IMG/VR virus record: IMGVR_UViG_3300005688_000028
Span: 1-64,000 of that record
DNA: 64,000 nt
Reading direction: 5' to 3' (one strand)
DNA from: a virus
Shown here one piece after another: positions 12,572-59,789 of the stretch. The stretch's first letter is position 1, and each line of letters begins with the position of its first letter. The translations under genes and the position numbers were made by a program. Below the pieces are notes generated by a model. The model was not told the DNA's origin, ran no database searches, and was given only the letters and a program-made list of their open reading frames with translations.

Positions 12572-13593
12572 CACGCCACCTCCCGCACCAATTCGGGCAC
12601 CGCCTCGACGACCGCCGGAAAGCCCGCGTGTCCGGTCAGAAGCTGCCCCTCGGCCCCGAAGCCGATGTAGAACACGATCTCGACGACACCCTTGGGCGGG
12701 TTGCGCACGATCGCCTTGATGGCCTTGAGGCTCCCAACCTGCCCGGTGCTCTTGTCGATCCGGCCCGAGGCCACATAGAGCGAGAGGTCGAGATCGCCCC
12801 ATGGCGCACGGTTCTTCGTGATGACGGCCCGCATGTCCGCCTCGGCCGACTGGTAGACCATCAGAGCGGCGCGGCGCACTCGGCTTGGCAGGTCCGCCGG
12901 GATCGTGTCGTCCTGGTGGCCGTCGCCATCGAGGTCGCTGTTGACGTAGTGCCCATCTGGATTGCCGAAGCCGAGGTAGTCGGCGAAGCACGTCCGAAGC
13001 TCGTCGTAGAAGGTCGAGAAGAAGCGGTCGATGTAGTCGTCGGCGAGCGGGTTGGCAAACCGCTTGTCGCCGCCCGCGCTCTTGCCGCGCCACACGTCCC
13101 GCTCGAAGTTGGCCCGGTAGACCTTGACCCGGATCGCCCGCTCGAGCGCGACGTCGGCGTCGTAGGTCATCCACTTGGCGTCGCCAGCTTCGCGTTGCTT
13201 GTCCCGCCAGCGGGTGACGATCCAGAGGGCGGTGTCGCTGTCGCCGCGGCGCAGACGGGCGAGGACCGCCGCCTCAAGCGCCTTGATCCGCCTCACGACG
13301 GACTGCGCATCCTTCACGCCCTCGGGGCCGTCGGCCGTGGCCTTGTCGCCGTCGAAGCGGCCTTCCCAGGAATGAACCGCGACGTCGCCGCCGAGCTCCC
13401 ACGTCCATTGGGCGAGGTCGGCAAGCGCCTCGAACTCGGCGCCGAACAGACCGCTCGGGAGGCGCAGGTCGAGGCACGAGATCCCCGCGTCGAGGAGGCG
13501 CTTGACCCCTTCGCGGCCCAACGTGTCGCGGCACTTGACCATGTCGACGAGGGCCACGGAATAAGTGATGCCGGTAGGCGTGGGGTCGCTCAT
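12571..13593 (-). CDS. putative endolysin of unrecognised family
   Basis: first gene of the lysis cassette, with its own late box; alternating beta/alpha pattern; no known catalytic motif recognised. Confidence 0.4.
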   Translation of the reverse strand: MSDPTPTGITYSVALVDMVKCRDTLGREGVKRLLDAGISCLDLRLPSGLFGAEFEALADLAQWTWELGGDVAVHSWEGRFDGDKATADGPEGVKDAQSVVRRIKALEAAVLARLRRGDSDTALWIVTRWRDKQREAGDAKWMTYDADVALERAIRVKVYRANFERDVWRGKSAGGDKRFANPLADDYIDRFFSTFYDELRTCFADYLGFGNPDGHYVNSDLDGDGHQDDTIPADLPSRVRRAALMVYQSAEADMRAVITKNRAPWGDLDLSLYVASGRIDKSTGQVGSLKAIKAIVRNPPKGVVEIVFYIGFGAEGQLLTGHAGFPAVVEAVPELVREVA

Positions 13594-13626
13594 GCCCGTC
13601 ATGCTCGACGAGGCGGCCCCGAAAGC

Positions 13627-13636
13627 GTGAACCTTC
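13627..13636 (-). promoter_or_regulatory. late-promoter box variant GAAGGTTCAC
   Basis: 33 nt upstream of ATG 13593; AGCAT -10-like element. Confidence 0.55.
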
Positions 13637-13639
13637 GCA

Positions 13640-15105: not shown

Positions 15106-15108
15106 GCG

Positions 15109-17899: not shown

Positions 17900-17909
17900 G
17901 GGCTCCCCC

Positions 17910-19316: not shown

Positions 19317-19392
19317 TGGATGCAGGGGCCGGACTCGAACCGGCGACCTCTGGGGTATGAGCCCTGCGCGCTACCAACTGCGCCACCCTGCT
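19317..19392 (-). tRNA. tRNA-Met(CAT), initiator-like, CCA encoded
   Basis: AGCAGGG TG GCGC AGTTGGTA GCGC G CAGGG CTCATAC CCCAG AGGTC GCCGG TTCGAGT CCGGC CCCTGCA T CCA; 1:72 mismatch and GGG/CCC anticodon stem. Confidence 0.92.
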
Positions 19393-19423
19393 GCGGCCAT
19401 CGTGCATAGGGGTCGGCGGGGTG

Positions 19424-19433
19424 GTGAGCTTTC
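19424..19433 (-). promoter_or_regulatory. late-promoter box GAAAGCTCAC (tRNA/baseplate J unit)
   Basis: exact motif; CACGAT -10; 31 nt to tRNA nucleotide 1. Confidence 0.75.
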
Positions 19434-19436: not shown

Positions 19437-21116
19437 TCAGGTCGGGAACGGCCGCACGACCTCGATCGTCGCGCCCGCCGCGGTGCGCACCGAGAACTCA
19501 GCCTCGAACCGCCCGCCCGTCTGCGCCACGCGCATATCGGTGACGGCACGCACGCGGTTGTCGCGCTTCATCTGCGCCCGCGTCTCGAAGCCGATCATGC
19601 CGACGGTGCCCGCCTTGGCGCCCTCGCCGATGAGGGGCGGCAAACCCCACTCGGGGAACACGATGTTTGCGCCCTTGGTCGCCAAGAGGCGCCGCGTCAA
19701 CGCTTGGTCGAGGTTGTCCTCGCCGCGCACGCGGGCGAACTCCGTGGTGCCCTCGATCACGAGGTTGTCGTCGGCGTCGATCGCCAGGTCCACGCCGAAC
19801 AGCTCGGGCGACTGTCCCGCCTGCACGCCCTGCGGCGACGGAGCGCGGAGCATGAGCCCCGGGGTCAGCGGCCCGCCGTCGGGCGCCTCGAACGGGCTCG
19901 CCATGCCGTTGAGGCTCAGAAGCTCGCTCCACCGGGAGGCGTCGCCGAGGACTCGAGCCGCGAAGGCCGGCAGGGTCTCGCCCTGCTCCAAGGGCACGGA
20001 CACCACGGGGCGGCCGTCGACCACGCCATAGGTCCGGTCGGCCGGCGTGCCCCCCACGGCCCGATTCTCTCGCGGGACGTATCGACCGCCTGCCTGGCCG
20101 AGCGTCGCCAGCGCCTTCGCGCGGGCGTTCTCGATGCTGCCATAGGCGCCCATGAACCACTTGCGGGCTTCGGCCCTACCGGCCCCGAGCGGGACCGCGT
20201 CGGCGAAGGCTTCCAAGACCTCGACGGAGTCCACGGCCGCGTCGATGATCTGGTTCGTCACGACGGCCGGGAAGCGGACGTAGGATCGGAGCACGCCAGC
20301 GGCCTCTTTGGCGCTCCGACAGACCGAGGTGAAGTCGTCGAGCGGGGCCTTGAACTGCGCCCACCGGGCCGGCAGCTCGTCTCGGATCTCTGCGAGCGAG
20401 GCCAGGGTCACGGTGTCGGTGGGGCGCTCGTCGAGCACGTCCATGTTCAGGACGCTCATGGGTCGGCGCTCGTCGAGCTCGGCGAGATTGAGCACTCCCT
20501 CGTCGTCGTAGTAGTCGATCTCCTCCAATGGGATAATGGCTTTCACCGCGACGTCCAGCGCCTTGTCGGCCGCCTGTTGCTTCGCGGGTCCGCTCACGGG
20601 TGCGGGCTTCGCGTCGCTCACGAGACCGCGCGTGACCAGCTCGAGGGTGAAGCTCCGAATCGTCCGGGCGCCCTCGGTGTCCCGCACCGGGACGAAGCTC
20701 ATGATCTCGACGAACCAAGCCTCGTCGTTGGCCTCGTCCTGCATGGAGCGGAACACGAGGCGCGGGGCCTTCGCGGGGTCGCGGGAGATCGCGCCCTCGT
20801 AGAGCTTGCCCTCGGCCTCGAAGCGCTTGATGAACTCGACGAACTCCACCATGTGGGCGCGGCCGTCGAGCTCGGTCGCGACGCCGTCGCGGTTGAAGAC
20901 GGGGAAGCGCTTTGCGCCGCCTGATGTGCCGGCGAGGGAGATCGGGAACTCGCGGAAGCCGCTCTTCTGCTCGATCGGCCGGTCGCCGAGCGTCCACTCG
21001 GACACGCGCGCGGGCTGGTAGGCCGGGACGTACCGGGACACGGGCGGGACCACCATGGAGCGAACGGGCTCGCCCGTGACGTGGACCTCGAGCAGAAACC
21101 GGACGTCAGTCGCCAT
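19437..21116 (-). CDS. fused tube-initiator / LysM / gp25-like baseplate protein
   Basis: GETL..FAAR.LGD..RW..L..LNG LysM; C-terminal FGVDL...V.GEDNL.QAL..RL...KG.....P.WG. Confidence 0.7.
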   Translation of the reverse strand: MATDVRFLLEVHVTGEPVRSMVVPPVSRYVPAYQPARVSEWTLGDRPIEQKSGFREFPISLAGTSGGAKRFPVFNRDGVATELDGRAHMVEFVEFIKRFEAEGKLYEGAISRDPAKAPRLVFRSMQDEANDEAWFVEIMSFVPVRDTEGARTIRSFTLELVTRGLVSDAKPAPVSGPAKQQAADKALDVAVKAIIPLEEIDYYDDEGVLNLAELDERRPMSVLNMDVLDERPTDTVTLASLAEIRDELPARWAQFKAPLDDFTSVCRSAKEAAGVLRSYVRFPAVVTNQIIDAAVDSVEVLEAFADAVPLGAGRAEARKWFMGAYGSIENARAKALATLGQAGGRYVPRENRAVGGTPADRTYGVVDGRPVVSVPLEQGETLPAFAARVLGDASRWSELLSLNGMASPFEAPDGGPLTPGLMLRAPSPQGVQAGQSPELFGVDLAIDADDNLVIEGTTEFARVRGEDNLDQALTRRLLATKGANIVFPEWGLPPLIGEGAKAGTVGMIGFETRAQMKRDNRVRAVTDMRVAQTGGRFEAEFSVRTAAGATIEVVRPFPT

Positions 21117-21144
21117 GGCGTCATGTTCCATGCGGCCCCGGTGG

Positions 21145-21173
21145 CGGGTGAGCTTTCCGCGAAAGCTCCCGCT
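21145..21173. promoter_or_regulatory. back-to-back divergent late boxes (GTGAGCTTTC-cgc-GAAAGCTCCC)
   Basis: inverted pair; 31 nt to ATG 21116 (-) and 32 nt to ATG 21203 (+). Confidence 0.75.
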
Positions 21174-21202
21174 TGGCGGCGGGCCTGTGGACGATCGGCC
21201 GC

Positions 21203-22384
21203 ATGGCGAACGAAACCCCGATCGGCGACCTTGTTCAGCTCGATGATGACGAGCGCCTCGACATCCCCGATGCGAGGCGGCTTCAGAGCTTCGTCTACGA
21301 AGCGCTCGCGGATGCGATCGGGGGCACCTTCGGGCCGTGCCATGGCGTCCTGAGTGAGCCCGCCTTCGGGACCGCCGTGAGTGCGGTCACGATCGGCGAA
21401 TGCGTCCTCGTCGGCATCAAGGCCGCGACGGGAGGCACAAAGCGCTTCCGGGGTGGCGTGTTCCCCTACAACCCCGCGAGCAGCTACCAAGCCGGCAACA
21501 CCACGGTCAACCTGAGCGCCTACCAGAGCCCCGAGGCGTTCCCGTACCTGTGGTTCTGTCGCCGGGAGCTCGAGGCGAACATCGAGACCCGCGTTCGTCA
21601 CGTCGGCGGCGTCGAGTCCACCTATCCGCCCAAGACGACGCGGCGGCAATACTTCGGCTTCGGGGCGACCACGGATTTCAGCACCCCGCCCAACGAGACC
21701 GAGGACTGGTTCATCTTCGCGCGCGTCACGGGGTGGAGCGGGGTGTTCCCGAACAAGGTTCCGACGATCGAGCCGGTCCACATCTTCGACAAGGGCAAGC
21801 TGCTCGGGCTCTACGGGACCGCCTCGAACTACCTCGGGGCGTACATGATGGACCAGGACGGCGGCGCGGCCATCGCGCAGGCCATGGGCCTCCTGTCGCA
21901 CTTCATTCTGCGGCTCACCTCGAACACGCACACATTCGACCCGAGCACGCTCGAAGACCTCGCGGCGACGAGCGCGACCTTCGAGCCGGACCCGGCGGTC
22001 CGCGGCATCATGGAGCTGCATGATGATCTCGAGGTCGTTGAGGAGATCGTCAACAACCAGCCGGTGATGCTGGCTTGGGGCTACATCCAGGCCGATGGGG
22101 CGCTTACGGGCGACAACTTCACGGGCATGAACAAGCGCCAAGTCGCAGCCTCGGCCGACTCGAAGCCCGGAACAGGCGAATACAGCCTCAAGGTCAAGGC
22201 GGCCTCGGTGGCGGCGGTCCACGTCACCTTGAGGGCCAGCGCCAGCGACCCGAGCTTCGTCAACAACCCCTCGTGCGTCGTGGGCGGGGGTAACGCGACC
22301 ATCGGGATCAATGTGTTCAACCTCGCAGGCTCGCAGGCCGACCGGCCCCTTTGGGTCACCGTCTGGGGCACCCCAGCGTCCTAA
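21203..22384 (+). CDS. putative virion/baseplate protein on the opposite strand
   Basis: late box; L.D.ERLDIPD N-terminus; C-terminal beta domain (AWGYI...GTGEY). Confidence 0.65.
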   Translation: MANETPIGDLVQLDDDERLDIPDARRLQSFVYEALADAIGGTFGPCHGVLSEPAFGTAVSAVTIGECVLVGIKAATGGTKRFRGGVFPYNPASSYQAGNTTVNLSAYQSPEAFPYLWFCRRELEANIETRVRHVGGVESTYPPKTTRRQYFGFGATTDFSTPPNETEDWFIFARVTGWSGVFPNKVPTIEPVHIFDKGKLLGLYGTASNYLGAYMMDQDGGAAIAQAMGLLSHFILRLTSNTHTFDPSTLEDLAATSATFEPDPAVRGIMELHDDLEVVEEIVNNQPVMLAWGYIQADGALTGDNFTGMNKRQVAASADSKPGTGEYSLKVKAASVAAVHVTLRASASDPSFVNNPSCVVGGGNATIGINVFNLAGSQADRPLWVTVWGTPAS

Positions 22385-23166: not shown

Positions 23167-25562
23167 GGACCCCTCAAGAAGCAGCTCTGAACCTGTCCGA
23201 GCACCTGCATGACGTTGGGCACCGTCGGCCCCACGGCGGGCAGCGAGGGATCGAACGCGCCGCCGTTGAGGAAGTAGGCGAGGATCGCCGGGGAGTTCGC
23301 GGGCAGAAAGTCGGTCAGGATCGTTCGGTCTGTCTCGGTCAGCGTGTACTCGTCGCGCCCATCGCCATCCGTATCGGCAGCGATCCAAGTCGTGGGGTCG
23401 GTGCCGCTCCCGCTCGACACAAAGCCGAAGGCGCCGCGGTAGTCGTAGTGGACGCCGGTCGATCCCCCGGCAGGGAAGCGCGCCGACGGCGGCCCCGTCT
23501 TGCGGTAGGGCCTTGACGGCTTGCCAGCCTGGTCCGGGGTCGTTCCCGAGATCCCGCCCGCCTCGAAGTTGAGGTACAGGCCACGCCCGCCCTTGGGAAT
23601 GCGACCTTCGTTGCCGAGCCGGGTCAGCGCCGCCCACGTCTGCAACACGCCCGCGGTCTTGATCTGGCCCGCTGGCGCATTCGGCTTCACCTTCACGGCG
23701 AAGTCGAGGGCGCACCCGAGCCGGTGGTTCACCGATGCGTCGTTCGCGCGCAGGACTGCGATCGGGTCAATGACTGCATCGGCGTAGAGCTGGCGCCAAT
23801 AGGCTTCGATGACGTAGGCCACGGCCGCGACCACGAGCACGTTAGCGCGCTTTGAGCCCGTGAGGTCGCCGCGGTTGAAGCCTCGCCCGACCGCCCACGA
23901 ATCGAGCCACGTCGGGACTTTCGAGAGGTCGAGGCTCATGCCCAGCGGGAACGTCGTCGCGGCGCCCTCAGCACACACCACCTTGACCTGCTCGACGGGC
24001 TTCGCCTTCGTCGTCGCGGGCGGCTTCTTCGCCTGGAACACGAGCGGGTCCCGATACCGCTCCTCGAACAGCCCGCGGTCGTACTCGACCACCGTGCGGC
24101 CCGACTGCGCGCCCCGGGCCTGAACGGTCACCGTGTGCGTCACCCGCGTCATGTAGGCCGTGAACGGCTGGTCGCGCCCGATGTCGAGCTGCACCGGCTC
24201 ACCGGCTCGAGCCCTAAGGCCCAGATAGCCGCACTCGAAGCTCCCGACCCTGAAGACGTGCCCGAGGCCGTAGAGGTTCCACCCGAGCAGGCCGATGGTG
24301 CGGAGGCGCTTGGCGAGCTCGAAGTCTCCGAGCTGGTCGGGCGCCATGTCCCAATTGAGCTCCAGCATCTTCGCGCCGTGAAGCTCCACGTCTTTGCGGT
24401 CGAACAGCGGCAGGCCGGCCCAGCTCATGAGCCGGATGGGCTGGCCTCCCATGACGGTCCAGTTGACCGTGACGGCGTTGATCCGCGCCGCGTCCGTGCG
24501 GCGGTGCGAGAACCGGAAGACCTCGTCCTTCCTGAGCTTCAACGCGCGGCCGAGGTCCCACGTCTTGGCCTCGAAGCGCTCGTCGATGCTCACCGCGGCG
24601 GGCTCGCCCTCGTGGGTCACCACCATCTCGGAGAGGCGGCCCGTGCGCCACGGGATGAGCCGGTGGATCATCACCGGCCGCGCGTCCGCGTAGCCCTTGG
24701 CGGTCGGGTCGTTCGTGGCCCCTTCGATGCTCGGGAACATCTCAATCAGCCGCGGCTCGCGCTGGAACGTGCCCATGACCACATCGGCCACGGTGCCGTT
24801 GGGGAGCGCCGACGCAATCGCTGTGGCCCCCGCGACGGGTACAGGGTCCATCGTGCGAAGCGGGGCCACCACGCGGCCCGTGTCAACCGTGTAGGCCGGG
24901 AGGAACAGGTCGGCGAGCGTCGTCGCGCCCGGGATGAGCGTCGGCGGGATGCGGACCGGGCCGAGGAACGAGAGCAGGCCCCCGGGGCCGAACACGAGGC
25001 CGAAGTCGGCGCGCTTGATGATGCGCGTGATCACCTTGAGGTATTGCGACCACCGATCCGCATTCATGATGCCGCCGACCGACTCGGAGAGGCCGACGGC
25101 GACCTCCGTGGGAAGCGTTCGGATGAACTGGAGCGCCCCATCGGCCTGAACCGAGGCGCTGGCGTAGAGCGCGCCTTGCGGCCCCGAGAGAGAGCCAGGC
25201 GAGTCGTTGATGCGGCCGAAGGCCAGCATGCGGCCGGTGGCGTTCTCGATGACCTTGAGCCAGAGCCCGGGGTCGATACTCACCCCGTCCTTGGTCTTCT
25301 GGAAGACCTCGGCGCGCTCCACCTGGCCCGCCTCGTCTTCACGGGGCGACGGCGCGCGAAGCCAATAGGGGTCGCCGGGGTCGCCGCTCACCCTGAGCTC
25401 GCTCGTGAGCAGGTCGCCCAGCGGCAAGGCCAGCTCAGCCGAGATCCAATCCCACGGTGCGGTGGTGCCCTCGGACCACGACACCGACTTGACGTAGCGG
25501 GTCAGGTCGAACGGGGTCCCGCGGCCGTAGGCGTGCGCTTCGATGCGGACGGGGGACAGCAT
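23163..25562 (-). CDS. baseplate hub protein with C-terminal M15-type peptidase (tail lysin)
   Basis: DLTRYV.SVSW; D.ELHG; R.GEP; Y...V.H; then R....SVNH..G.ALD...G.GLY...VHYD.RG. Confidence 0.7.
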   Translation of the reverse strand: MLSPVRIEAHAYGRGTPFDLTRYVKSVSWSEGTTAPWDWISAELALPLGDLLTSELRVSGDPGDPYWLRAPSPREDEAGQVERAEVFQKTKDGVSIDPGLWLKVIENATGRMLAFGRINDSPGSLSGPQGALYASASVQADGALQFIRTLPTEVAVGLSESVGGIMNADRWSQYLKVITRIIKRADFGLVFGPGGLLSFLGPVRIPPTLIPGATTLADLFLPAYTVDTGRVVAPLRTMDPVPVAGATAIASALPNGTVADVVMGTFQREPRLIEMFPSIEGATNDPTAKGYADARPVMIHRLIPWRTGRLSEMVVTHEGEPAAVSIDERFEAKTWDLGRALKLRKDEVFRFSHRRTDAARINAVTVNWTVMGGQPIRLMSWAGLPLFDRKDVELHGAKMLELNWDMAPDQLGDFELAKRLRTIGLLGWNLYGLGHVFRVGSFECGYLGLRARAGEPVQLDIGRDQPFTAYMTRVTHTVTVQARGAQSGRTVVEYDRGLFEERYRDPLVFQAKKPPATTKAKPVEQVKVVCAEGAATTFPLGMSLDLSKVPTWLDSWAVGRGFNRGDLTGSKRANVLVVAAVAYVIEAYWRQLYADAVIDPIAVLRANDASVNHRLGCALDFAVKVKPNAPAGQIKTAGVLQTWAALTRLGNEGRIPKGGRGLYLNFEAGGISGTTPDQAGKPSRPYRKTGPPSARFPAGGSTGVHYDYRGAFGFVSSGSGTDPTTWIAADTDGDGRDEYTLTETDRTILTDFLPANSPAILAYFLNGGAFDPSLPAVGPTVPNVMQVLGQVQSCFLRGP

Positions 25563-25594
25563 GGGCGCGATAGTGCGGGCTGGCCGCGCTTGGC

Positions 25595-25604
25595 GTGAGC
25601 TTTC
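25595..25604 (-). promoter_or_regulatory. late-promoter box GAAAGCTCAC
   Basis: exact; CACTAT -10; 32 nt to ATG 25562. Confidence 0.75.
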
Positions 25605-25762: not shown

Positions 25763-25772
25763 GAAACCTCAC
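25763..25772 (+). promoter_or_regulatory. late-promoter box variant GAAACCTCAC
   Basis: GAAGAT -10; 30 nt to ATG 25803. Confidence 0.6.
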
Positions 25773-25802
25773 CCCGCGGCCGGAGGCTGGCGAAGATGAG
25801 GC

Positions 25803-27548
25803 ATGGGCGACAGCCGGACCATCCACGAAGAAGTCATCAAGATCGATTTCGACTCGGAGCAGGCCAAGGCCCGTCTCGCGGAGCTGCAACGCGCGGGCGA
25901 GGCACTGCTGAAGCTCATGGGCGGACCCATGCCCATGTTCTCGGGCGGCGGGGTCGGAGGGGCCAGTGGTGGCGGTAGCACCGTCTCGACGGTCACGACG
26001 ACGATGCAGGCGCAGGCGACGCAAGCGGCGACCGCTGCGACAGGTGGGGGGGTCGGAGGGGGTGGGGCGCCCGCGAGCGCGACGGTCTCGAGCGGGGCGA
26101 TCGTGCCTCCGGTGGGGGCGACGTCGGCGACGGCGCCGACCGGCGGGAGTGGGTCGCCCCGCCCAATGCCAGCCCCGCCATCCCAACCTCCTATCCCGAC
26201 ACCCCGGCCGCCTGACCCATGGGGCAACTTCGATGCGTGGGGCAACCGGCTCGTAAAGCTCCCGTTCCAGGGCGCGCAGGGAGGCAATGCTGGGCTCGCG
26301 AGCGGGTTCGGCGGGCTTGCGTCCTACGCCCTTGGTGGCCCCGCCGGTGTTGCGGCCGCGGCCCTTGGCGCGCTCACCGCAAGTAGCATCGGCGCAATGA
26401 ACGAGGCCAACGCGAAGCGGGCGGCTATCGAGAGCGAATGGGGGTACGCAGGACTCAGTGGCATGCTGGGCGGGTGGGCCGGACAGACAAACCCGAACAC
26501 GATTGGCGAAGGTCTTTCCAACAAGACGATCAATCAGGTTCTTGATTATGGCGCGAGCCTCGGGTTCGGGCCCGACAAGATCACTGGTGGCGTGCGCGAA
26601 TACCTGGCATCGGCGGGCGGCAGCTTCGGCCCCGGCATGAGAATGGATCGCGCATCCAACTGGATCGACATGATGGCCGCCGGCCTATCACCAGGAACGA
26701 TGGGCGGTGTGGACTCGCTGGTCATGACGAAGGGGGCGGAGGGCGACCGTCTCTCCGGGGCCCGGCTTGCTGGGGCCGGATCTTACGGCTTCGGCCTCAC
26801 AGGCGGGCTCGATGGCTGGATGCAGTCGCTCACCGGGCAGGTCGATCGCCTGCTCGACCGAGGCATCAAGGTCAGTCTCACCGATACGGCCGCGCTACTT
26901 GAAGGCATGGCCGCCGACCCAGCGCTTCGCCACCTCGGGAGCAAGGCCCCGTCGGTCGTGGGGGCGCTTGGAGGCGTTGCGGCCGACGCACGGCAGACGC
27001 TCCTCGCGCCGTTCCAGCAGCTCGCCCACCATGCCGTCCTGGCCGATGCGTTGAGCCAAGCGGGCGGCAACCCATTCGATGCCATCCGAATCCTCGAAGA
27101 CCCGGACAAGATGGGCCAGAAGGGCGTTCGTCGTGCAATCTCTGGCCTGCTTGGGACCGGAGACATTGGCAAGGCGGCGATGGCGAACGTCACACGGAAC
27201 CTCGGGCTCGACGAGAGTGGTGCGTTGCTCGGGCTTTCGGACAATGCGCCGTGGTATTCTAGCCCCAGATACACCGACCCGTCTTTCCGAGCTCGTGCCC
27301 GCCTTGAGGCCGAGAAAGAATGGGATGGGGTAACCTGGAAGGCTGGAACACTCGACCAGCACGCCGAATCAGCCCGATCGTCAAGGTCTTGGGCAAAGAT
27401 CGGAGACGGGGCCGCCAAGGCGTTCACCGACTTCATGGACTTCGTCAACAAGCTCACCGGAGGCGGGAACGCTCTCGTCGAATCGCTCGACGCGCTCAAG
27501 ACGAGACTCGACCACTTCAACGTCAAGCCTACCGTCGAGCGCGACTAA
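25803..27548 (+). CDS. tape measure protein (short, inverted orientation)
   Basis: EVIKIDFDSEQAKARLAEL start; Gly/Ala-rich helical body; adjacent to the hub gene. Confidence 0.65.
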   Translation: MGDSRTIHEEVIKIDFDSEQAKARLAELQRAGEALLKLMGGPMPMFSGGGVGGASGGGSTVSTVTTTMQAQATQAATAATGGGVGGGGAPASATVSSGAIVPPVGATSATAPTGGSGSPRPMPAPPSQPPIPTPRPPDPWGNFDAWGNRLVKLPFQGAQGGNAGLASGFGGLASYALGGPAGVAAAALGALTASSIGAMNEANAKRAAIESEWGYAGLSGMLGGWAGQTNPNTIGEGLSNKTINQVLDYGASLGFGPDKITGGVREYLASAGGSFGPGMRMDRASNWIDMMAAGLSPGTMGGVDSLVMTKGAEGDRLSGARLAGAGSYGFGLTGGLDGWMQSLTGQVDRLLDRGIKVSLTDTAALLEGMAADPALRHLGSKAPSVVGALGGVAADARQTLLAPFQQLAHHAVLADALSQAGGNPFDAIRILEDPDKMGQKGVRRAISGLLGTGDIGKAAMANVTRNLGLDESGALLGLSDNAPWYSSPRYTDPSFRARARLEAEKEWDGVTWKAGTLDQHAESARSSRSWAKIGDGAAKAFTDFMDFVNKLTGGGNALVESLDALKTRLDHFNVKPTVERD

Positions 27549-31976: not shown

Positions 31977-31986
31977 CGCAAAGGAG

Positions 31987-38357: not shown

Positions 38358-38389
38358 GCGCCCCATCGTGCGCAGCGGCATGACGGGGC

Positions 38390-38399
38390 GTGAGCTTTC
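38390..38399 (-). promoter_or_regulatory. late-promoter box GAAAGCTCAC
   Basis: exact; CACGAT -10; 32 nt to ATG 38357. Confidence 0.75.
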
Positions 38400-44111: not shown

Positions 44112-44137
44112 GGTCTCTCTCCCTGGGTTCGTCTGGG

Positions 44138-45647: not shown

Positions 45648-45680
45648 GGCGGCGATTGCAAGCTAGGTGCGCCTGCGCGC

Positions 45681-45690
45681 GTGAGCTTTC
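45681..45690 (-). promoter_or_regulatory. late-promoter box GAAAGCTCAC
   Basis: exact; TGCAAT -10; 33 nt to ATG 45647. Confidence 0.75.
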
Positions 45691-49946: not shown

Positions 49947-51824
49947 CTAGATCCTCATGGGCATGATGATGTGGCGCTCGCCGTCGGTCCGGTGAAGGTC
50001 GAGCGGGCCATACTGGCCGCCGTGCGACACCCGAAGCGTCACCGGCCCCTTGTGGCCGACGAGCGCGTCTTGCAGGTACTTGGCGTTGACGGCGATCTGA
50101 CCCTTGTCGCTGCCGGCCATCCAGTCGCCGCCGTCCTTGGCCGCCTTGTGCGTCTTGGCGTGGACCTTCAGGTCATCCGGGGCCTGGTGCTCGTGATCGG
50201 CGTGAGTCCGCAGGCTGGCGTGGAAACCTCCGTCGGCCGTGTGCGTGAACAGGATCTGCGGCGGGATCGACTTCGCGACCTTGTTGGTCTTGTGGTGCTC
50301 CTTCGCGGCGTCGATGAGTGCCTGGAGCGACTTGGTATCGAACGAGTGCTCCGAGGCCGCGAAGTCGGTGGTCGGGACGATGACGGCCCGGTGCCCGTCG
50401 GTCGCATACGCGAACTTCCCGTCGGCGTGGACGCCCGCGAGGTTCGGGCGCGTCGAGTCCTTACTCGCAAAGGTCGTGAGGCGCTTGACGTCCGCCTCTT
50501 TGGGCGTGTGGTCCTTGTGGGCATGCACGGGCTTGTCGGGAAGCTCTTTGGCCGCCTCGACGGCCTTCTTGACCTTGTCGACCGTGGCATCGGAGACGGA
50601 CGAGGGGCGGGCTTTGGACTCATCCGCCTTCGGGGTGGTTGTTCCGCCTCGGCGGAACAACGACGACACGACCTCATCAGGCTCGCCAGACTCGTCATCA
50701 CGAGACGCTTGGCTCTCTCCGTGCAGCTTACTGAATCGCGCACTCTCCGCCCCGCTCAGGGCGTAGAAGTGAGATCCGTCCGGTGCCAGCGCGACGGGTC
50801 CGCCGTTCCTGTCGGCGGGGCGGTATCCTGCCTCATGCAGTGCCCCGACCATTTCGGCGCGGGTCATCTGCTGGCCCTTGAACCGAACCTCTTTTTCGAG
50901 GTGGGTGTCGGAACGCTTCTGGCGCGCAGACTCAAGAGCCTTGTCGCGCTTCGCACGGGCCTCCTCTTGCGCCTCGGGCGACTTGCGGCGGGCGACCTCG
51001 CGCTCCTTCTCCTTCCTGGCCTCATCACGCCTGCGGCTGAACTCACCCCCGGAGATATGGTCGGCGATGGAAGCCACGCCGAACTTGACGCCAAGCTCCT
51101 TCGCGGTCGCCCGCATGGCGGGGCCATCAATACCAGCCGCGCCCCGGCTCGCGGCGTCCGTCATGGACTTTGCTCGCTTGGACACCTCTTCGTCCGATAG
51201 GCCGGGCTGCGTGCGCTTGATGTGCTTCGCATAGACCTTCTCGAAGGACGCCCGGGCGCCCTCTGCCCCCTGCTCCACATGCCCCGCGTCAGCCGCTCGC
51301 TTCTTCGCCGCGGCGATCGTCTTCTCCGAGGCCCCATGCTTCTTGGCCTCCTCCAAGTCGGCGAGGGCCTGCTTCTTGGCCTTCTCGCGCTTCTCGGCGA
51401 CCTTGGCGTCGTCCTCCTTACGGGCCTCGGCGTGCTCGCGATGGAGCATCGTGGCGAGGGCGTCCTTGTGGATTTTGTGCTCGGTCCCGGTCTCGTCGTG
51501 ACGCACAGTGACGTGCCCGTCGCCATGGTCGTGCGTGACCTCGAAGTGCCCGTGCTCGCCCCCGTCCTTCATCCTGAAGGCGGCGCCCACCTTCATCTCG
51601 TCGTGGTGGCCGAGCCCGGAGCCGCCGATCGTGCGGTAGAAGTACCGATACCGCTGCTTGCCGGTCTTCGTGACCTTGCCCGGGATGGGGACCCTGCGCA
51701 GGTACTTGTGCGCCTTGCCCTTGGCAAGTGCGCTTAGGATGGCCTTCGCCATGAAGGCAGGAACGGTGCGCTCGGGCGCGAGCGCCTTCACCAAGGCTGC
51801 CAGTGCTTTCGTCGACATGCTCAC
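49947..51824 (-). CDS. polyvalent head protein: YRYFY module plus C-terminal beta-clamp-like fragment
   Basis: FASKDSTRPNLAGV...ATDGHR...VNAKYL.DAL...IIMPMRI. Confidence 0.8.
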   Translation of the reverse strand: MSMSTKALAALVKALAPERTVPAFMAKAILSALAKGKAHKYLRRVPIPGKVTKTGKQRYRYFYRTIGGSGLGHHDEMKVGAAFRMKDGGEHGHFEVTHDHGDGHVTVRHDETGTEHKIHKDALATMLHREHAEARKEDDAKVAEKREKAKKQALADLEEAKKHGASEKTIAAAKKRAADAGHVEQGAEGARASFEKVYAKHIKRTQPGLSDEEVSKRAKSMTDAASRGAAGIDGPAMRATAKELGVKFGVASIADHISGGEFSRRRDEARKEKEREVARRKSPEAQEEARAKRDKALESARQKRSDTHLEKEVRFKGQQMTRAEMVGALHEAGYRPADRNGGPVALAPDGSHFYALSGAESARFSKLHGESQASRDDESGEPDEVVSSLFRRGGTTTPKADESKARPSSVSDATVDKVKKAVEAAKELPDKPVHAHKDHTPKEADVKRLTTFASKDSTRPNLAGVHADGKFAYATDGHRAVIVPTTDFAASEHSFDTKSLQALIDAAKEHHKTNKVAKSIPPQILFTHTADGGFHASLRTHADHEHQAPDDLKVHAKTHKAAKDGGDWMAGSDKGQIAVNAKYLQDALVGHKGPVTLRVSHGGQYGPLDLHRTDGERHIIMPMRI

Positions 51825-51864
51825 CTCGTCAGGCCCGCATTGTGGGCTGGTGGCGGGGCGGGGG

Positions 51865-51874
51865 GTGAGCTTTC
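51865..51874 (-). promoter_or_regulatory. late-promoter box GAAAGCTCAC
   Basis: exact; CACAAT -10; short leader containing GAGG. Confidence 0.72.
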
Positions 51875-54800: not shown

Positions 54801-56162
54801 TGACGACGAGACGTGGAAGCTGCCCAGGATGCTGTGCCATGCCGATTCGACAAGCCGGTCCTTCTTCTCGTCGGCGTAGGCTCGACTACCAACGATGCGC
54901 TGCAACTCGGGTTTGGTGAGCTTGGCGAGCTGCGCCATGATAGCCGCCTTGTTCGCCACCGTTGCATCGAACAACCGGCGCACCTCAGCGGCAGTGATGG
55001 TGGCGTCGTTGATGCGCTGAACCATGGCGTCCACGCCGATGGACTCCATCAAACCTTGAGCGGTCTTCTCATCGGGGGCGGGCTTCTTTGGGGCCTCCCT
55101 CTTCACCTCCCGCGCAGCCTCCTCGGCCTTCGTCGGCAGCCCCAGCCGCGCCCGGTGCTTGTCGGTCCCGTACACCGCCGCCTCCGCGCGGTCGGCCTCG
55201 AGCCGCTTCGTCGCTCGCTCCTTCTTCTCGGCCTCGTGCTTCTCGATGCCGGCCCGGTGCTCGGCATGCAGCATCGCGGAGAGCTCGGCCTTCGTGACGG
55301 TCCGGCTCTGGCCGTTCTCGTCGTGCTCAATCGTCAGCCGGTCCCCGTCCACGGCCTTGATGTGCCAGTGGCCGCCGTGGGCCATGAAGCCCGCGCCCTC
55401 GACAAAGTGCTCCTGCGCGTGGACGCCGCCGGACCCGCGCGCGACGTGGTAGAAGTAGCGGTAACGGGGCGTCCCCTTCTTCGTGAACTTCCCGGGGATC
55501 GGCACGCGCTTGATGTAGCGGTGCGCCTTGCCCTTCATGAGCTGCGAGAAGAACGCGAGGCGCCCGTAGGCTTCGGGGAGGAGGAGCGAGCCCGGCGGAA
55601 GGCCCGCGAGCGCCTTCTTGAGCGCCTTCCCGGCGTTGTTGGGGTCAGCGATCTTGGCGCGGAAGTCGTCGATGCTCATGGTCGTGTGTCCCCCGTAGAA
55701 GCCGGGCTTCGTGTACTGCTTGCGGTAGCAGGCCAGCGCCTCGGCGACGCTCGGGAAGCCCAGCATGACCTTCTGCTCATCGTGCTCGCCGGTCTCGGGA
55801 ACCCGCTGGTCCACTACTACGACCACGTCAGACTCGAGGGCGTCACCGACGTAGACGTCGAGGCGGTCGCCATCCATGCCGCGGGCTCCCATGACACCAG
55901 CGGCCCCGCGGGCGTGTGACCTCACCTCGCCATAGTGGGCCTGCATCGTGACCCGCCACGGCGTGCCGTTGGCGTCGACACCCTCGCGCACGTCGCCCTT
56001 GCGCTGCTCGATGTCGATCGGGATGCCCTGGAAGACCAGCGAGGCCACGAACGGGAACTCCGAACGGTTCGGCGACGGCGGCGGCATGAGGCCGGGCGAG
56101 GTTTCGCCGCGGCGGACGAGCAGGGCAGAGAGGCGGCGCGCGGCGTGGTCGAAACGGTCCAT
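51873..56162 (-). CDS. polyvalent head protein: inorganic-pyrophosphatase-like domain, YRYFY module, amino-type (probably N6-adenine) DNA methyltransferase
   Basis: IE..KG..R.G....G..W...M..HYG...G.DGD.LDVY.G...DE.K.MLGF; YFPTP, VLEPSAG.G, VMNPPF. Confidence 0.85.
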   Translation of the reverse strand: MDRFDHAARRLSALLVRRGETSPGLMPPPSPNRSEFPFVASLVFQGIPIDIEQRKGDVREGVDANGTPWRVTMQAHYGEVRSHARGAAGVMGARGMDGDRLDVYVGDALESDVVVVVDQRVPETGEHDEQKVMLGFPSVAEALACYRKQYTKPGFYGGHTTMSIDDFRAKIADPNNAGKALKKALAGLPPGSLLLPEAYGRLAFFSQLMKGKAHRYIKRVPIPGKFTKKGTPRYRYFYHVARGSGGVHAQEHFVEGAGFMAHGGHWHIKAVDGDRLTIEHDENGQSRTVTKAELSAMLHAEHRAGIEKHEAEKKERATKRLEADRAEAAVYGTDKHRARLGLPTKAEEAAREVKREAPKKPAPDEKTAQGLMESIGVDAMVQRINDATITAAEVRRLFDATVANKAAIMAQLAKLTKPELQRIVGSRAYADEKKDRLVESAWHSILGSFHVSSSTQWSPFSETYDAAITREVDKLTDEAIAAYSARRKKAIEEHKARIGAVIEPKTLADFKTRISLSREGERSLTPEQRVRYDELVAEDARAQAQKEHEDAHAARAKAAQERTTLAGSALATETTAKVIPGKHTKHGHNIWTVQLADRLAPDEYAKANAHAKSIGGYYSSFRGNGAIPGFVFKTDAAARQFADKFGGFGEAAQAAEPVTEPEKPGPLHGNAPARLREQADNAHARAQESLSADRKVNTARRANMAGSAEAQAMGEQAVASRMRLIADAQEAGSTKHLWGIKTRAHVEMLDNILRQAKYDRDRATREAGGKADHNETSHRAVTPEDIEHARPPEPSVHRDNLKGLAQALKDVPGAKQAAARVLKRIAQLGERDWQVKASTEQEREDFKALSDAGRLRRVETFAADDVRDQLTTWKRASEGMGIKSLPQLRAALREYVELARGAGKPKADPIKAAERALVGLKIPGYFPTPKPLADRVMQLADIKPGEKVLEPSAGKGSLADLAREQGGDVHVLEQHSGLRDVLSLKGHKVVGHDATDHAETYDKVVMNPPFDDGQDIEHVRHAFERNLKPGGKLVAIMSEGPFFRSDKKAQAFREWLEANGGTSEKNPEGSFKDSDNSTGVATRTVVVTKAPPVATVTPSEGRDPATSGGGARKYGRDDVDYDDWYSPWMKMLARSKTKHELQKMLGVATREAQKHASQHHAAIQATTSMTSQSQRRAQTGNALAGRADEAMAVRGALEIHDLFPEHAKVPSEGHDPAHTAKLDEKIARLEREVARGGPFDTQRSKAMAEAFPLGAGSMRPTGQRGGSTRSAERRMDASIDAAKRHVEAVAELRAAKARRAAYVEGRVNEQGRAIKVEPVKPVKPKAPRSPKGVHLVDSDGKALPLTPDKLRLVFGVKNEVGLSDGSRLSLDSRGDHTNIIITKPDGRQHQKAERGDDLWAGVIAMVRDHEAGRLEKATRAFGRLARLLR

Positions 56163-56182
56163 GCGGCGCAGCATCGCCGGGC

Positions 56183-58123
56183 CTACGCGGCGCGGTGAGC
56201 TTTCGTGCGCAGGCGCTTGAGCGCGAGGCGGGCGAAGGTGGCGAGCGAGCCCTTGTAGAGCTTCGACAACGCCGTCTCGGCCGCGTCTCGCGAAGCGAAG
56301 TACCAAGCCTTAGCATCCGGGTCCCAGCGGGCGCCCTTGGCCTTCAGCGCGTCCTTGTGGGCGAAGGTGTTACCGGCCACGCCCACGCGACCGCGCGACA
56401 ACGGAACCATCCTGAGACCGTGCTTCTCGCCAGGCGTTGAGGCGCTGCCGCTCGGGGCCTGCGGTGTGGCTGGCTTGGGCGCAGGATTGGACGCGGCCTT
56501 GTCGCCACCACCCTTGGCCTTGTCGGCCTCGGTGAGTTCGGCCCGTGGCTGCGGCGGAACCTTGGCCTTCTGGGCCTCTTTGAAGCGGAATATCGCCTTG
56601 TCCACCTCGGGCGTCAGGGTGGCCACCTTCAGGATGGTCCGGTCGTCGTCATATCCCAGGGTCTTGGTCGCATAGACCTTGTCGTTCTCGCGGTCGATGT
56701 AGAAGGTCCGGCCGCCGGACTTGGCGGACTCGCCATCGGTGAGGCGCTCGGCGTTGGCGGGCGGCCTCCATCTGCCGTTCTCGTCCGAGAGGCCGCCGCC
56801 GATGTCGACCTTGTGAGCCGGAACGACGCGGTCCAGCGCCTCGCGGTTGCCGGTGATGGCCCGGTCCAACAGCGCCCGGTCGGGATGCCACTGCGAGCTT
56901 TCTACCGCCTGTCTCGCATGATAGGCCGCATCGTAGGGCAACCGCTTGGACTCGTCTGCGATGTAGGCCTCGGCCTCCGCGATGTTCCGCTCGTGATTGG
57001 CCTTGAAGTAGGACGACTCCTCTTTCTCGAGCGCCTTGCGTTGGCGTTCGATGAACAGCTTTGCCAGAGCGATTCCGTCCTCACGCTGGATCTCAGCGGC
57101 GGGCTTGTCGGCGACTCGGTCGAACAGCTCCTTGTTGGCGTCGTAGTCGCGAAGCCTGTCTCGAACCAAGGTGAGGCTCGGGATCGCACGCATCCGCGTC
57201 TCGTGGCTCACGTCGAGGTCGCGCCAAGAGCCATCCGCCGCCGCGATGCTCTCGTAGAGCTTCTTGTGCTCTGCGATGGCGTTCTTCGTGCTCTCCCATT
57301 CGCGATACGTCCGAGCCTCTTCCGGCGTCGCGCGGCGCATGGTGGCGGTCACCACCGCATGAGCATCCGCGAGGTGGTAGTCGCCCACGTCCTCCGACCA
57401 CTCGCGGTCCTGCTTGGAAAGGCGCTTGGTCCGACTCCCGACCACGACCCAGATGGACCCGTCCTTGCGCTTCTGGAAGTCTCCCGGCTCCGGCCCGGTG
57501 TCTTTGAACTGGACGGTCTCGTACTTCTCCGACGCTGGCTTCTGCGCCTCCGCAGCCTCTTTGCGCTGCCTCAATTCGTCCGCAGACAGAAGCTCATCCT
57601 CGGTCGCTCCGAAGCCCCGCGCCCGCTTCTCCGCGGCTTCGATCTGCTTCGCTGTGCCCAGCTTGCGGACCTCGTCGAGCTCGGCCAGGGCGCGCTTCTT
57701 CTTCGCCTCGCGGTCCTTCGCGGTCTCGGCCTCCTCGGCCTTGATGCCCTCGGCATGGTGGGCTTGCAGTCGCCTCACGAGCTCGTCTTTGTGGATGCGC
57801 TCCACCTTGCCCGACTCGTCGTGCTTCACCGTGAGGTGGCCGTCCTCGTGAACGTCCTCGATGTGGTAGTGGCCTCGCTTTCCCTCGTGCTCACCCGCGA
57901 AACCAGCGCCCTTGACCCAGTGCTCGGCGTTGTCGAGACCCTTGCCGCCCTTGGCCCCGGTGAGCTTGTAGAAGTAGCGATAGCGCTGCTTGCCGCTCTT
58001 CGTGAACTTGCCGGGGATCGGAACGCGCTTGATGTACTTGTGGTTGGCGCCCTTGATGAGCGCCATGAACATGAGCCGGCGGGCGACTCGCGGGTTGATC
58101 GGAAGCCAGATCCCCATGCTCAT
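56183..58123 (-). CDS. polyvalent head protein: YRYFY module plus small C-terminal GNTF..KD.LKA.GARWD domain
   Basis: LIKGANHKYIKRVPIPGK...RYRYFY; ATGA-coupled to portal. Confidence 0.75.
   Translation of the reverse strand: MSMGIWLPINPRVARRLMFMALIKGANHKYIKRVPIPGKFTKSGKQRYRYFYKLTGAKGGKGLDNAEHWVKGAGFAGEHEGKRGHYHIEDVHEDGHLTVKHDESGKVERIHKDELVRRLQAHHAEGIKAEEAETAKDREAKKKRALAELDEVRKLGTAKQIEAAEKRARGFGATEDELLSADELRQRKEAAEAQKPASEKYETVQFKDTGPEPGDFQKRKDGSIWVVVGSRTKRLSKQDREWSEDVGDYHLADAHAVVTATMRRATPEEARTYREWESTKNAIAEHKKLYESIAAADGSWRDLDVSHETRMRAIPSLTLVRDRLRDYDANKELFDRVADKPAAEIQREDGIALAKLFIERQRKALEKEESSYFKANHERNIAEAEAYIADESKRLPYDAAYHARQAVESSQWHPDRALLDRAITGNREALDRVVPAHKVDIGGGLSDENGRWRPPANAERLTDGESAKSGGRTFYIDRENDKVYATKTLGYDDDRTILKVATLTPEVDKAIFRFKEAQKAKVPPQPRAELTEADKAKGGGDKAASNPAPKPATPQAPSGSASTPGEKHGLRMVPLSRGRVGVAGNTFAHKDALKAKGARWDPDAKAWYFASRDAAETALSKLYKGSLATFARLALKRLRTKAHRAA
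56195..56204 (-). promoter_or_regulatory. late-promoter box GAAAGCTCAC (inside the 3' end of the upstream gene)
   Basis: exact; GATGCT -10; 32 nt to ATG 56162. Confidence 0.72.
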
Positions 58124-59733
58124 TCTCCCTCGTCGAGACCCGGCTCGCCCTGGCCCGGCAGCCCAGCATCCATGCCCGGCACGCCCTCACCACCCTCACC
58201 TGGCATGCCGCCCATCGCGGCCGGGTCCTCGGTAGGCGTGAAGGTCCCAAGCGCCTGTAGGACGGTGCTCGACAGCGGCACGCTCAGCGCCAGAATGATT
58301 CGGTCGCGCGTCTTGTCGTCGACCTCGATCTTGTTGGCCTTGAAGTAAGCCTTGTCGATGACGGGCTTCCCGAGGCGTGACCGGCTCTCGTTCGACGAGA
58401 AGATCCCCTCGGCCTTCTTCTCGAGTTCGATCTGGGAAAGCTCCGACTCGGCGCCGTCGCCCGTGAAGCGGAACGCGAAGTCCTCATCCCAGCGGTAGAT
58501 CAGGCTCTCGTTGATGCTGTCCTCGAAGGCCGTCAGCATCGGGCGCAGGCCGAACATGCGCGAGAGCTGGATCTCGTCCTTCGGGTTCGCGCCCGACAGC
58601 GGGGCGCCCGCGCCCTTGTACTCGGGCAGGCCCACCTCGACGGGACGCATGTTCCAGTTGGCGGCCACGACCATCAGCTTGATGAGCATGAGGTCGGTGA
58701 ACTCCATGTCCTTGTTCGGGTGGGCGAGGTCGAGCTTCTCGATCCGCTCGCGGCTCGCCTCTGTGCCCCCGGGGCTGAACAGCGCCATCGCCATGCGGTG
58801 CGCGTTGTTGATGCCCTTGAGCTGCGCCGTCATCATCGCCTTGAAGGCGAGCCAGGTCTCTTTGTCGTAGTTGGCGAAGACGTTGAGCATGGTGCTCGCG
58901 TGCGTGCCGTTCCGAAAATAGACCTGATTGTAGTCGTCGGCCTCGATGTAGGCTTGCAGCGCGTCGTAAGCCTGCTGGATCTCCGGGTAGCCATACCCGA
59001 AGACCTCCATCTGCGTGCGCGGGCGGCGGACCACGCTCAGGATCTCGTCCTCGTGCCACGTCGCCACGACCCTATCGAGGCTCGGGAGCACCTGCACGAA
59101 GCTCCCCGAGTGATAGTTGAACTCGCCCGGCCCCTCCTGCTTCTTCGGCCGCCCTCGACGCACCCACGCCGCATCCAGCGCCCGGAAGGCCCGGGGCCGC
59201 CCGCCGTTCTCGTACTGGATTTCGGCGATGGCCCAATCGTAGGTCAGCGAGTCGTCCGCGAGCATGCCCATCGTGCGATGGAAGGGCTGCAAGCGGTTGA
59301 GCATCTTCTGGATTTCCGCGAACTCCTTGCGCGCGCCCTGGCTCACCTTCGCGTCGGGGTCTCGCATCCCGAGCTGGTATCCCGGCGTCCACTGGTCGCG
59401 CGCCGGCCGGCAGTGCTCGACGAACTGCTGCTGGCGCTTGCTCTTGAAGGGCGCGCAGATACTCCGGTCGGCCGCGGCGCGAAGCGTTCGGAACGGGAGC
59501 CAGCCCGCGCCCGGGTGGCCCATGACGGGCTTGTCGCCCGAGAAGAACTTGTATTCCTCGTAAGGGTCCCAATCCGCGCCCTTGAAGGCCGCATCGTCGC
59601 CCTCGTCGGAGCGGGTCTTCAACGGGCTCTCGGGCTCGCCCCGGACCGACATCGCAGACTCGCGGCGCGCCTTGAGAAGCGGGTTCTCAGCGTCCGAGCC
59701 AACGAGCAACCTGTGCAGAAACGAACGCGCCAT
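58120..59733 (-). CDS. portal protein
   Basis: D.LTYD...E; F.ALDA; GYGYPE; YN..YF.NG; G..NAH; KDMEF; P.EVG; GLRP.L...E..IN; NE.R..LG. Confidence 0.92.
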   Translation of the reverse strand: MARSFLHRLLVGSDAENPLLKARRESAMSVRGEPESPLKTRSDEGDDAAFKGADWDPYEEYKFFSGDKPVMGHPGAGWLPFRTLRAAADRSICAPFKSKRQQQFVEHCRPARDQWTPGYQLGMRDPDAKVSQGARKEFAEIQKMLNRLQPFHRTMGMLADDSLTYDWAIAEIQYENGGRPRAFRALDAAWVRRGRPKKQEGPGEFNYHSGSFVQVLPSLDRVVATWHEDEILSVVRRPRTQMEVFGYGYPEIQQAYDALQAYIEADDYNQVYFRNGTHASTMLNVFANYDKETWLAFKAMMTAQLKGINNAHRMAMALFSPGGTEASRERIEKLDLAHPNKDMEFTDLMLIKLMVVAANWNMRPVEVGLPEYKGAGAPLSGANPKDEIQLSRMFGLRPMLTAFEDSINESLIYRWDEDFAFRFTGDGAESELSQIELEKKAEGIFSSNESRSRLGKPVIDKAYFKANKIEVDDKTRDRIILALSVPLSSTVLQALGTFTPTEDPAAMGGMPGEGGEGVPGMDAGLPGQGEPGLDEGE

Positions 59734-59779
59734 GCGGAGGCCCCTTTGGGGGCCAGCTTCTGCAAGCGGGCTCTGCGGT

Positions 59780-59789
59780 GTGAGCTTTC
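59780..59789 (-). promoter_or_regulatory. late-promoter box GAAAGCTCAC
   Basis: exact; GAAGCT -10; 46 nt to portal ATG, with hairpin GGCCCC-caaa-GGGGCC in the leader. Confidence 0.72.

Follow-up and report, generated by a model that had tools for sequence, protein, structure and literature searches.

We analyzed the first 64 kb (positions 1 to 64,000; hereafter "the window") of the 91,633-bp IMG/VR virus record IMGVR_UViG_3300005688_000028 (67.8% G+C), in which a 10-bp word, GAAAGCTCAC (hereafter "the box"), recurs upstream of virion genes and appears to mark a class of late promoters. Gene calls based on codon statistics yielded ~111 genes, and the virion genes are found mostly on the minus strand from ~8.6 to 65.9 kb. 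These include a collagen-like fibre gene (8785–9864), Baseplate J (17910–19298, identified by a Baseplate_J family match), a baseplate-like gene of 559 amino acids (aa; 19437–21116), the tail sheath (35267–37261), the major capsid protein (42573–44141), the prohead protease (44913–45647), the portal (58120–59733, identified through PHROG/Pfam), and terL (64157–65875, starting with GTG and extending beyond the window), along with two head proteins of ~1400 aa. Beyond the virion genes, the record carries an integrase (7269–8453), a plus-strand island with Bro-N and GmrSD-like genes (28.8–34.2 kb), an XRE repressor and an M78 peptidase (about 82957–84230 of the record), a DnaC/IstB-like loader, and SbcCD. 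Given a virion set with sheath and baseplate and a gene content with integrase and XRE repressor, this is a temperate, myovirus-type phage.

The phage belongs to a lineage without cultured relatives. A tblastn search with terL, the major capsid protein, and the candidate regulator described below returned no match among 50,697 GenBank phage records, and the sole megablast match to GenBank phages was a 187-bp SSB stretch. Portal homologues with 43–86% identity are present in Logan, ENA, and JGI data, and a search for related loci recovered only relatives with ≤26% identity, all of them low-GC viral or metagenome contigs and none from genomes. CheckV estimated the record to be 64% complete, and an independent assembly of the same phage spans 91,747 bp.

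A 10-bp box confined to virion-gene regions

Eight exact copies of GAAAGCTCAC are found in the window, all on the minus strand (19424, 21148, 25595, 38390, 45681, 51865, 56195, and 59780), whereas 0.06 would be expected from dinucleotide shuffles and none of 100 shuffles reached eight. The whole record, when scanned, has one more exact copy, the ninth, past the end of the window at 65908 (−), where it immediately precedes terL. Three variants are present at 13627 (−; GAAGGTTCAC), 21161 (+; GAAAGCTCCC), and 25763 (+; GAAACCTCAC), bringing the record to nine exact and three variant boxes, i.e., 12 sites. An earlier note, made from the letters of the window, had listed the eight copies and three variants, and each of these was recovered at its position. 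All 12 boxes are oriented toward the next gene, with 11 intergenic and the other one within the final codons of the gene that precedes its own target.

The conserved block is exactly 10 bp long, its flanks showing only a weak G/C preference, and it is the sole word common to many intergenic regions (9 of the 32 regions of at least 40 bp). When two mismatches were allowed across the record, no intergenic site with the downstream geometry described below was found beyond the 12 listed; the weakest of these, GAAGGTTCAC at 13627, is intergenic and displays the full geometry. The other one-mismatch matches (34695, 35275, 37966, 48070, and 56893) lie within genes, mostly antisense and without a −10 element, and their number agrees with chance (3.05 expected). 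Across IMG/VR, a scan for the combination of box, −10, and ATG yielded 96 single matches on unrelated contigs, none with repeated boxes, as would be expected by chance.

The genes preceded by a box encode the portal, head proteins, the protease and major capsid protein, the sheath operon, the baseplate, and terL. In the whole-record scan, no box was detected in the early, integrase, repressor, replication, SbcCD, or moron regions, i.e., the box is confined to virion-gene regions, as the earlier note had anticipated for late genes. Its statement that the boxes face structural or lysis genes or the tRNA held for the tRNA and for structural genes (portal, protease, baseplate-like, Baseplate J, and sheath) and found no support for lysis, as no lysis family was detected downstream of 13627.

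A weak −10-like element at fixed distance from the box

In all 12 units, a hexamer is found 19–20 nt past the box, and in 10 of them the start codon or tRNA nucleotide 1 follows 5–7 nt further on (eight ATG, one GTG for terL, and nucleotide 1 of tRNA-Met). For the 51865 and 59780 units, the ATG is instead 20–21 nt past the hexamer, which would correspond to a ~14-nt leader. The 12 hexamers (CACGAT twice, GACGAT, CACTAT, CACAAT, GAACAT, GAGCAT, GAAGAT, TGCAAT, CCCAAT, GATGCT, and GAAGCT) carry A at position 2 in 10 cases, A at position 5 in 10, and T at position 6 in every case. The pattern NANNAT occurs in register in 8 of the 12 units compared to 1.2% of random genome positions (P = 1.7e-13), consistent with the −10-like hexamer ending in T that had been proposed at this distance.

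The resulting consensus, c/g-A-N-N-A-T, is weak, the usual first T is missing, and there is no TG extension. The −35 place is occupied by the 3′ end of the box (CTCACs), 18–19 bp from the −10 and matching TTGACA at 3 of 6 positions at best, and a consensus scan found no sigma-70-type promoter in the late region. In other words, these units display the sigma-70-type −10 features (A2 and T6, 5–8 nt before the inferred start point) and lack a TTGACA-like −35 at 16–18 bp. From A(−11) and T(−7), the polymerase involved would be that of the host, with a housekeeping-type sigma. Since the −10 is weak and both a TG extension and a proper −35 are absent, the late promoters would be weak unaided, an argument for their dependence on a box-bound factor.

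Twelve units along the late region

The portal unit (59731..59789, −) comprises a box at 59780–59789, the −10-like GAAGCT at 59755–59760, a predicted leader of ~14 nt with a Shine-Dalgarno (SD)-like pairing of −7.0 kcal/mol, and an ATG at 59733; the predicted protein start (MARS...) agrees with the N-termini of eleven homologues. Within the predicted leader (59739–59754, −), a possible hairpin (GGCCCC-CAAA-GGGGCC) is found directly after the predicted start point and overlaps the SD-like AAGGGG. The 1429-aa head protein, which includes InPase and methyltransferase domains, has its unit at 56160..56204 (−), with a box at 56195–56204 within the final codons of the preceding gene, GATGCT at 56170–56175, and an ATG at 56162 without SD (−2.1 kcal/mol). 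The other unit with a short leader (51816..51874, −) precedes a 623-aa gene and includes a box at 51865–51874, CACAAT at 51839–51844, the SD GAGGTG (−10.2 kcal/mol), and an ATG at 51818. Upstream of the prohead protease, a 253-aa gene, and the major capsid protein, the unit at 45645..45690 (−) combines a box at 45681–45690, TGCAAT at 45655–45660, and an ATG at 45647; the protease gene has no SD (+1.3 kcal/mol), and the N-termini of its homologues correspond to M1 or M4 of the predicted open reading frame (ORF). A 141-aa gene and the tail sheath operon are preceded by a unit at 38355..38399 (−), with a box at 38390–38399, CACGAT at 38365–38370, and an ATG at 38357.

Further along the minus strand, a 799-aa gene without SD (+1.2 kcal/mol) follows the unit at 25560..25604 (box 25595–25604, CACTAT 25570–25575, ATG 25562), and on the plus strand a 581-aa gene follows the unit at 25763..25805, which carries the variant box GAAACCTCAC (25763–25772, GAAGAT 25792–25797, ATG 25803). 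Two units stand back to back, with 3 bp between their boxes: the unit of the 559-aa baseplate-like gene (21114..21157, −; box 21148–21157, GAACAT 21123–21128, ATG 21116) and that of a 393-aa gene (21161..21205, +; variant GAAAGCTCCC 21161–21170, GACGAT 21190–21195, ATG 21203), and jointly these two boxes form a 23-bp near-palindrome. tRNA-Met (19317–19392) and the Baseplate J operon are headed by a unit (19317..19433, −) with a box at 19424–19433 and CACGAT at 19399–19404. Nucleotide 1 of the tRNA is 19392, six nt past the hexamer, a base on which ARAGORN and the Rfam tRNA model agree. The last unit of the window (13591..13636, −; box GAAGGTTCAC 13627–13636, GAGCAT 13601–13606, ATG 13593) precedes a 340-aa gene and a series of small genes extending to the collagen-like fibre gene. 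Outside the window, terL is preceded by an exact box at 65908 (−) and starts with GTG at 65875. Where the earlier note had revised ORF starts to fit this geometry, the revised starts are in-frame ATGs and are plausible.

A scan of the late region identified no terminator-like site before any box, and given this absence of terminators the 12 promoters look like repeated entry points within long overlapping late transcripts, an organisation also described for Thermus phage Lalka27a (bioRxiv 10.64898/2026.04.20.719267). For genes without SD, efficient translation would then require a leaderless transcript of their own. A single intrinsic-terminator-like hairpin of the late region is convincing (42538–42552, −); it is located directly after the major capsid gene, where it may boost capsid-protein mRNA over the downstream genes.

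Sequence evidence for probable leaderless transcripts

Next, we compared translation signals between genes with the short hexamer-to-start geometry and all others. Across the nine short-geometry protein genes, anti-SD pairing averaged −2.4 kcal/mol, vs −7.8 kcal/mol in the other 99 genes (Mann–Whitney p = 6.5e-5), and both units with a ~14-nt leader do have an SD (−10.2 and −7.0 kcal/mol), like the majority of the remaining genes, i.e., among the box units an SD occurs only where a leader could hold it. The earlier note's observation that starts fall 5–7 nt after the −10, mostly without SD, is confirmed, the distance for 10 of the 12 units. In addition, C occupies the position just ahead of the start in nine of nine genes, and also ahead of the tRNA, compared to 55% in other genes (p = 0.01), which provides the favoured pyrimidine(−1)/purine(+1) start pair, and eight of these nine genes start with ATG, vs 60% of genes elsewhere. 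Finally, the 5′ end of the tRNA is found at the same hexamer distance (six nt) as the ATGs. Because a tRNA is not translated and still displays the same spacing, the landmark common to these units would be the transcript's 5′ end rather than a ribosome signal. Based on the geometry, the C at −1, the missing SD, and the tRNA spacing, we predict leaderless 5′ ends for these units, in support of the earlier note's proposal of a late promoter with a box for the −35 and a +1 coinciding with the start codon.

A similar arrangement was found in the early region, where TTGACC-N18-TAACGT, 7 nt, and then an ATG precede the gene at 82587–82850. By this arrangement, the phage seems to rely on host polymerase and on leaderless translation for early expression too; a search for a set of further sigma-70-type early promoters yielded one convincing case only. 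The surrounding sequence (record 82850–82892 and 82920–82960) resembles an immunity-type divergent region, with the leftward predicted leaderless start (TTGACC-N18-TAACGT-N7-ATG) belonging to an 87-aa gene, and AAGACC-N18-TACAAT found rightward before the XRE repressor, which is followed by the M78/IrrE-type peptidase. The true start of the repressor is probably the ATG at 82957.

The tRNA-Met itself (19317–19392, −) displays initiator-like features, i.e., an A1/A72 mismatch and a GGG/CCC anticodon stem, along with an A/A mismatch at 28:42, C38, and an encoded CCA. The Baseplate J gene begins 18 nt after it.

Candidate readers of the box

We searched the whole 91.6-kb record in six frames for known families of transcriptional regulators. 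Sigma region 2 (PF04542) had no match in the record, itself 64% complete according to CheckV, nor did Mor/C (PF08765) or MotA and AsiA (PF09114 and PF09010), and Ogr/Delta (PF04606) had none at E ≤ 1. Since the record encodes no sigma region 2, an activator is favoured over a phage sigma among the two readers of the box that the earlier note had named.

Two region-4-type helix-turn-helix (HTH) domains were detected in the record, one in the XRE repressor and the other in a 144-aa protein encoded at 79878–80312 (−) in the leftward early operon. The latter combines a C-x6-C-x4-C-x2-H cluster with a C-terminal region-4 HTH and has no region 2. Its family is named "sigma factor-like helix-turn-helix DNA-binding protein" at NCBI, and one ESM Atlas cluster is labelled AsgB family. 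Residues C56, C63, C68, and C99 are invariant (H71 nearly so) and align, together with the ER.RQ helix, across 44 relatives, while the match to PF04545 (20–21 bits) is under the cut-off. In an AlphaFold (AF2) model (predicted local distance difference test score, pLDDT, 82.5), residues 109–144 alone match solved sigma region-4 domains, weakly (Z about 3, root-mean-square deviation 1.0–1.4 Å); the fold search returned no match to the whole protein, and its N-terminal part has no solved relative. Of the 45 sequences compared, 42 have a recognition helix reading TRER(V/I)RQ.E, which is nearly the sequence of sigma-70 region 4.2, whereas SHERVRQIQ stands there in the phage protein, in a relative with 81% identity, and in one further member. 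Such an altered recognition helix would fit a target other than TTGACA.

Overall, this AsgB-like, region-4-only protein is the best candidate for the box reader, although we put it forward only tentatively. A more elaborate and more speculative scenario would have it act as a detachable "−35 reader": produced from the early operon, the stand-alone protein would bind GAAAGCTCAC through its changed recognition helix and take the place of host sigma region 4, switching the polymerase to the 12 late promoters with no AsiA-like partner. The initiator-like tRNA would in that case be a primary transcript from nucleotide 1, requiring no RNase P cut.

A probable phage-specific late promoter and its alternatives

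Taken together, we estimate a probability of roughly 0.7 that GAAAGCTCAC forms the upstream half of late promoters specific to this phage and giving leaderless mRNAs through host RNA polymerase and a trans-acting factor. Specifically, we hypothesize that host polymerase with its main (group-1-type) sigma would recognise the weak −10, while a trans-acting factor induced by the phage would read the box, at about −41 to −32 and thus in the −35 place, and recruit or activate the polymerase. Transcription would begin at, or within 1–2 bases of, the A of the ATG (the G of the GTG for terL, and A1 for the tRNA), and the host would translate the resulting leaderless mRNAs without SD. With terminators absent between them, the 12 promoters would serve about 57 kb of virion genes.

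Several points weigh against this interpretation. The boxes are described from one genome, the transcription start points are predicted from geometry, and the host sigma consensus and leaderless usage are drawn only from the phage's own early promoter. Given the 3 of 6 positions that CTCACs has in common with TTGACA, some participation of sigma region 4 is still conceivable. At a CheckV completeness of 64%, a regulator could be encoded on DNA absent from the record, although an assembly of this phage made elsewhere has a similar length (91,747 bp). For the candidate reader, a link between protein and box was sought in 80 viral loci with homologues, none of which repeats the box, which supports neither outcome; these loci share almost no other genes with this phage. 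In addition, IMGVR_UViG_3300031576_000014 has four copies of GAAAGCTCGC near a homologue that carries the ordinary TRER helix, in a different geometry. This contig is an unrelated 94.6-kb high-GC phage, and the four GAAAGCTCGC copies (contig 8380–15179; 0.37 expected in the locus) are within about 6 kb of the AsgB-like gene, with one other near-match in the rest of the contig.

The main rival is a complete alternative sigma factor, either borrowed from the host or a divergent or missing phage sigma, for which the box would be the −35 rather than an activator site. Strict orientation and a strict 19–20 bp spacing do resemble a bipartite promoter read by a sigma, the phage does encode a sigma region-4-type HTH, and CheckV completeness is just 64%. 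However, Sigma70_r2 is absent from all six frames of the record, the phage was independently assembled at about the same length, and the −10 displays the A(−11)/T(−7) housekeeping signature rather than the CGTC of extracytoplasmic function (ECF)-type sigmas. A spacing of 19–20 bp after a 10-bp box also exceeds usual −35/−10 spacers, and we regard this explanation as unlikely.

Other explanations appear far less probable. If the box were a repressor operator silencing late genes, e.g., in a lysogen, these promoters would run on the −10 alone. This would suit a temperate phage with an integrase, an XRE repressor, and an M78 peptidase, as well as the overlap of the box with the −35 region (a frequent repressor site) and the near-palindromic 21148/21161 pair. 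Yet 11 of the 12 sites are single, asymmetric, co-oriented with the gene, and at a fixed distance from the −10, as is typical of a positive element, while a box-less promoter would consist of a weak −10 only (no T at −12, TG, or −35), unlikely to drive abundant virion proteins, which leaves an operator very unlikely. Slightly harder still to sustain is a non-canonical RNA polymerase encoded by the phage, for which the box would be all or part of the promoter: several large proteins do have no assigned function (1413, 642, 585, and 477 aa), but the DxDGD catalytic motif is absent from every large protein, the second element resembles a sigma-70 −10, and the conserved part does not cover the start site, unlike promoters of single-subunit polymerases. 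PF00940 (T7-type) had no match in the record, although control genomes also gave none. We give the lowest credence to a box that acts at the RNA level, either enhancing translation or marking a processing site in long read-through transcripts. Genes without SD do need another route to translation, but the same box occurs at the same distance before an untranslated tRNA, the back-to-back pair has one box per strand, each directed at a different gene, a DNA-type −10 co-varies in position with the box, and Rfam returned no match at the boxes.

Comparison with known phage promoters

Late promoters with leaderless transcripts, boxes replacing the −35, and activator-dependent late transcription are each already known in phages. 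Phage Lalka27a of Thermus has many late promoters scattered in its late genes, few terminators, and mostly leaderless transcripts (bioRxiv 10.64898/2026.04.20.719267). According to the same source, phiYS40 also has many late promoters with leaderless transcripts, the 5′ end of leaderless transcripts in Thermus phages is the A or G of the start codon, and the late consensus is thought to reflect a phage factor altering the specificity of the host polymerase (bioRxiv 10.64898/2026.04.20.719267). The phage studied here resembles phiYS40 and Lalka27a in its many scattered late promoters, few terminators, phage-specific consensus, and predicted leaderless transcripts. In these Thermus phages, however, the class signal is the −10 itself (TAGGGT) with a C at −25, whereas the phage studied here has a weak, generic −10 and carries its specific signal in a 10-bp box at about −41 to −32, and no relationship between the phages is detectable.

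T4 middle promoters use a MotA box and AsiA-remodelled sigma-70, and thus also pair a host sigma-70 −10 with a box of the phage's own in place of the −35, the reader of this box being a phage protein instead of sigma region 4. The MotA box, however, is centred near −30, 11–13 bp from the −10, while the box studied here is centred near −37 and ends 19–20 bp from the −10; MotA and AsiA domains are absent here, and T4 middle transcripts are not characteristically leaderless. The late promoters of Mu are activated by C and have non-consensus −10 and −35 elements (PMC4461284). Mu is likewise a temperate phage with several late promoters with poor −10 and −35 and an activator site adjoining or over the −35, but its late promoters number four, its C site is longer and of dyad type, its mRNAs have leaders, and the Mor/C family is absent from the record. 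With regard to the promoters of P2 Ogr and P4 Delta, the box is not a dyad at −55 and no Ogr/Delta zinc finger was found in the record, and for phage sigmas such as SPO1 gp28 and gp33/34 or T4 gp55, no phage sigma region 2 gene was found there.

AsgB of Myxococcus xanthus is a 163-aa DNA-binding protein with similarity to region 4 (PMC3986340). The candidate reader shares with this family the C-x6-C-x4-C-x2-H cluster and the C-terminal region-4 HTH, but it and two relatives carry SHER where the others carry TRER. We know of no member of the AsgB-like family for which a DNA target, or a function at late promoters of phages, has been established. New in this phage are the word GAAAGCTCAC and its position (−41 to −32, 19–20 bp from the −10), along with the tRNA unit and the candidate reader.

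These units provide a transcription map for a phage lineage without cultured relatives, would set the start codons of about six genes, and extend the set of phages that pair a private late signal with leaderless translation by a case in which the 10-bp box is perfectly conserved. The tRNA unit would be a rare case, for a bacterial virus, of a tRNA made without a 5′ leader. Should the region-4-only protein be the reader, it would provide the first function and the first DNA site for the large, widespread AsgB-like family found in Myxococcota and many high-GC phages, and box and protein could be used as an orthogonal expression switch in high-GC bacteria.

Additional features of the record

The record carries terminal repeats, and a 12/24-bp tandem repeat, GGCGGTCGACGGGGCGGTCCGCGG, is found at both of its ends (window 7–68 and record 91494–91633). 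As this repeat falls in the glycine-rich coding part of a DUF6745 gene (5–781), the "direct terminal repeat" call may reflect a coding tandem repeat rather than true termini. Between 1932 and 2420 (+), 489 bp have no convincing ORF and include a partial box-like word, AAAGCTCA, at 2299, where the promoter geometry is absent.

A GroES-type co-chaperonin gene (Cpn10, 97.5 bits; 62067–62348, −) adjoins a ThyX-like gene (61171–62070, −), and both are within the transcription unit led by the terL promoter. A host guess from the phage GroES (50–59% identity to Burkholderiales) was not used, a pattern pre-filter biasing this result.

Finally, three small plus-strand genes starting at 31444, 31749, and 32170 (region 31420–32190) all display a near-identical ribosome-site context, GGAGCAACGAC(C)ATG, which suggests paralogous cassettes in the moron island.

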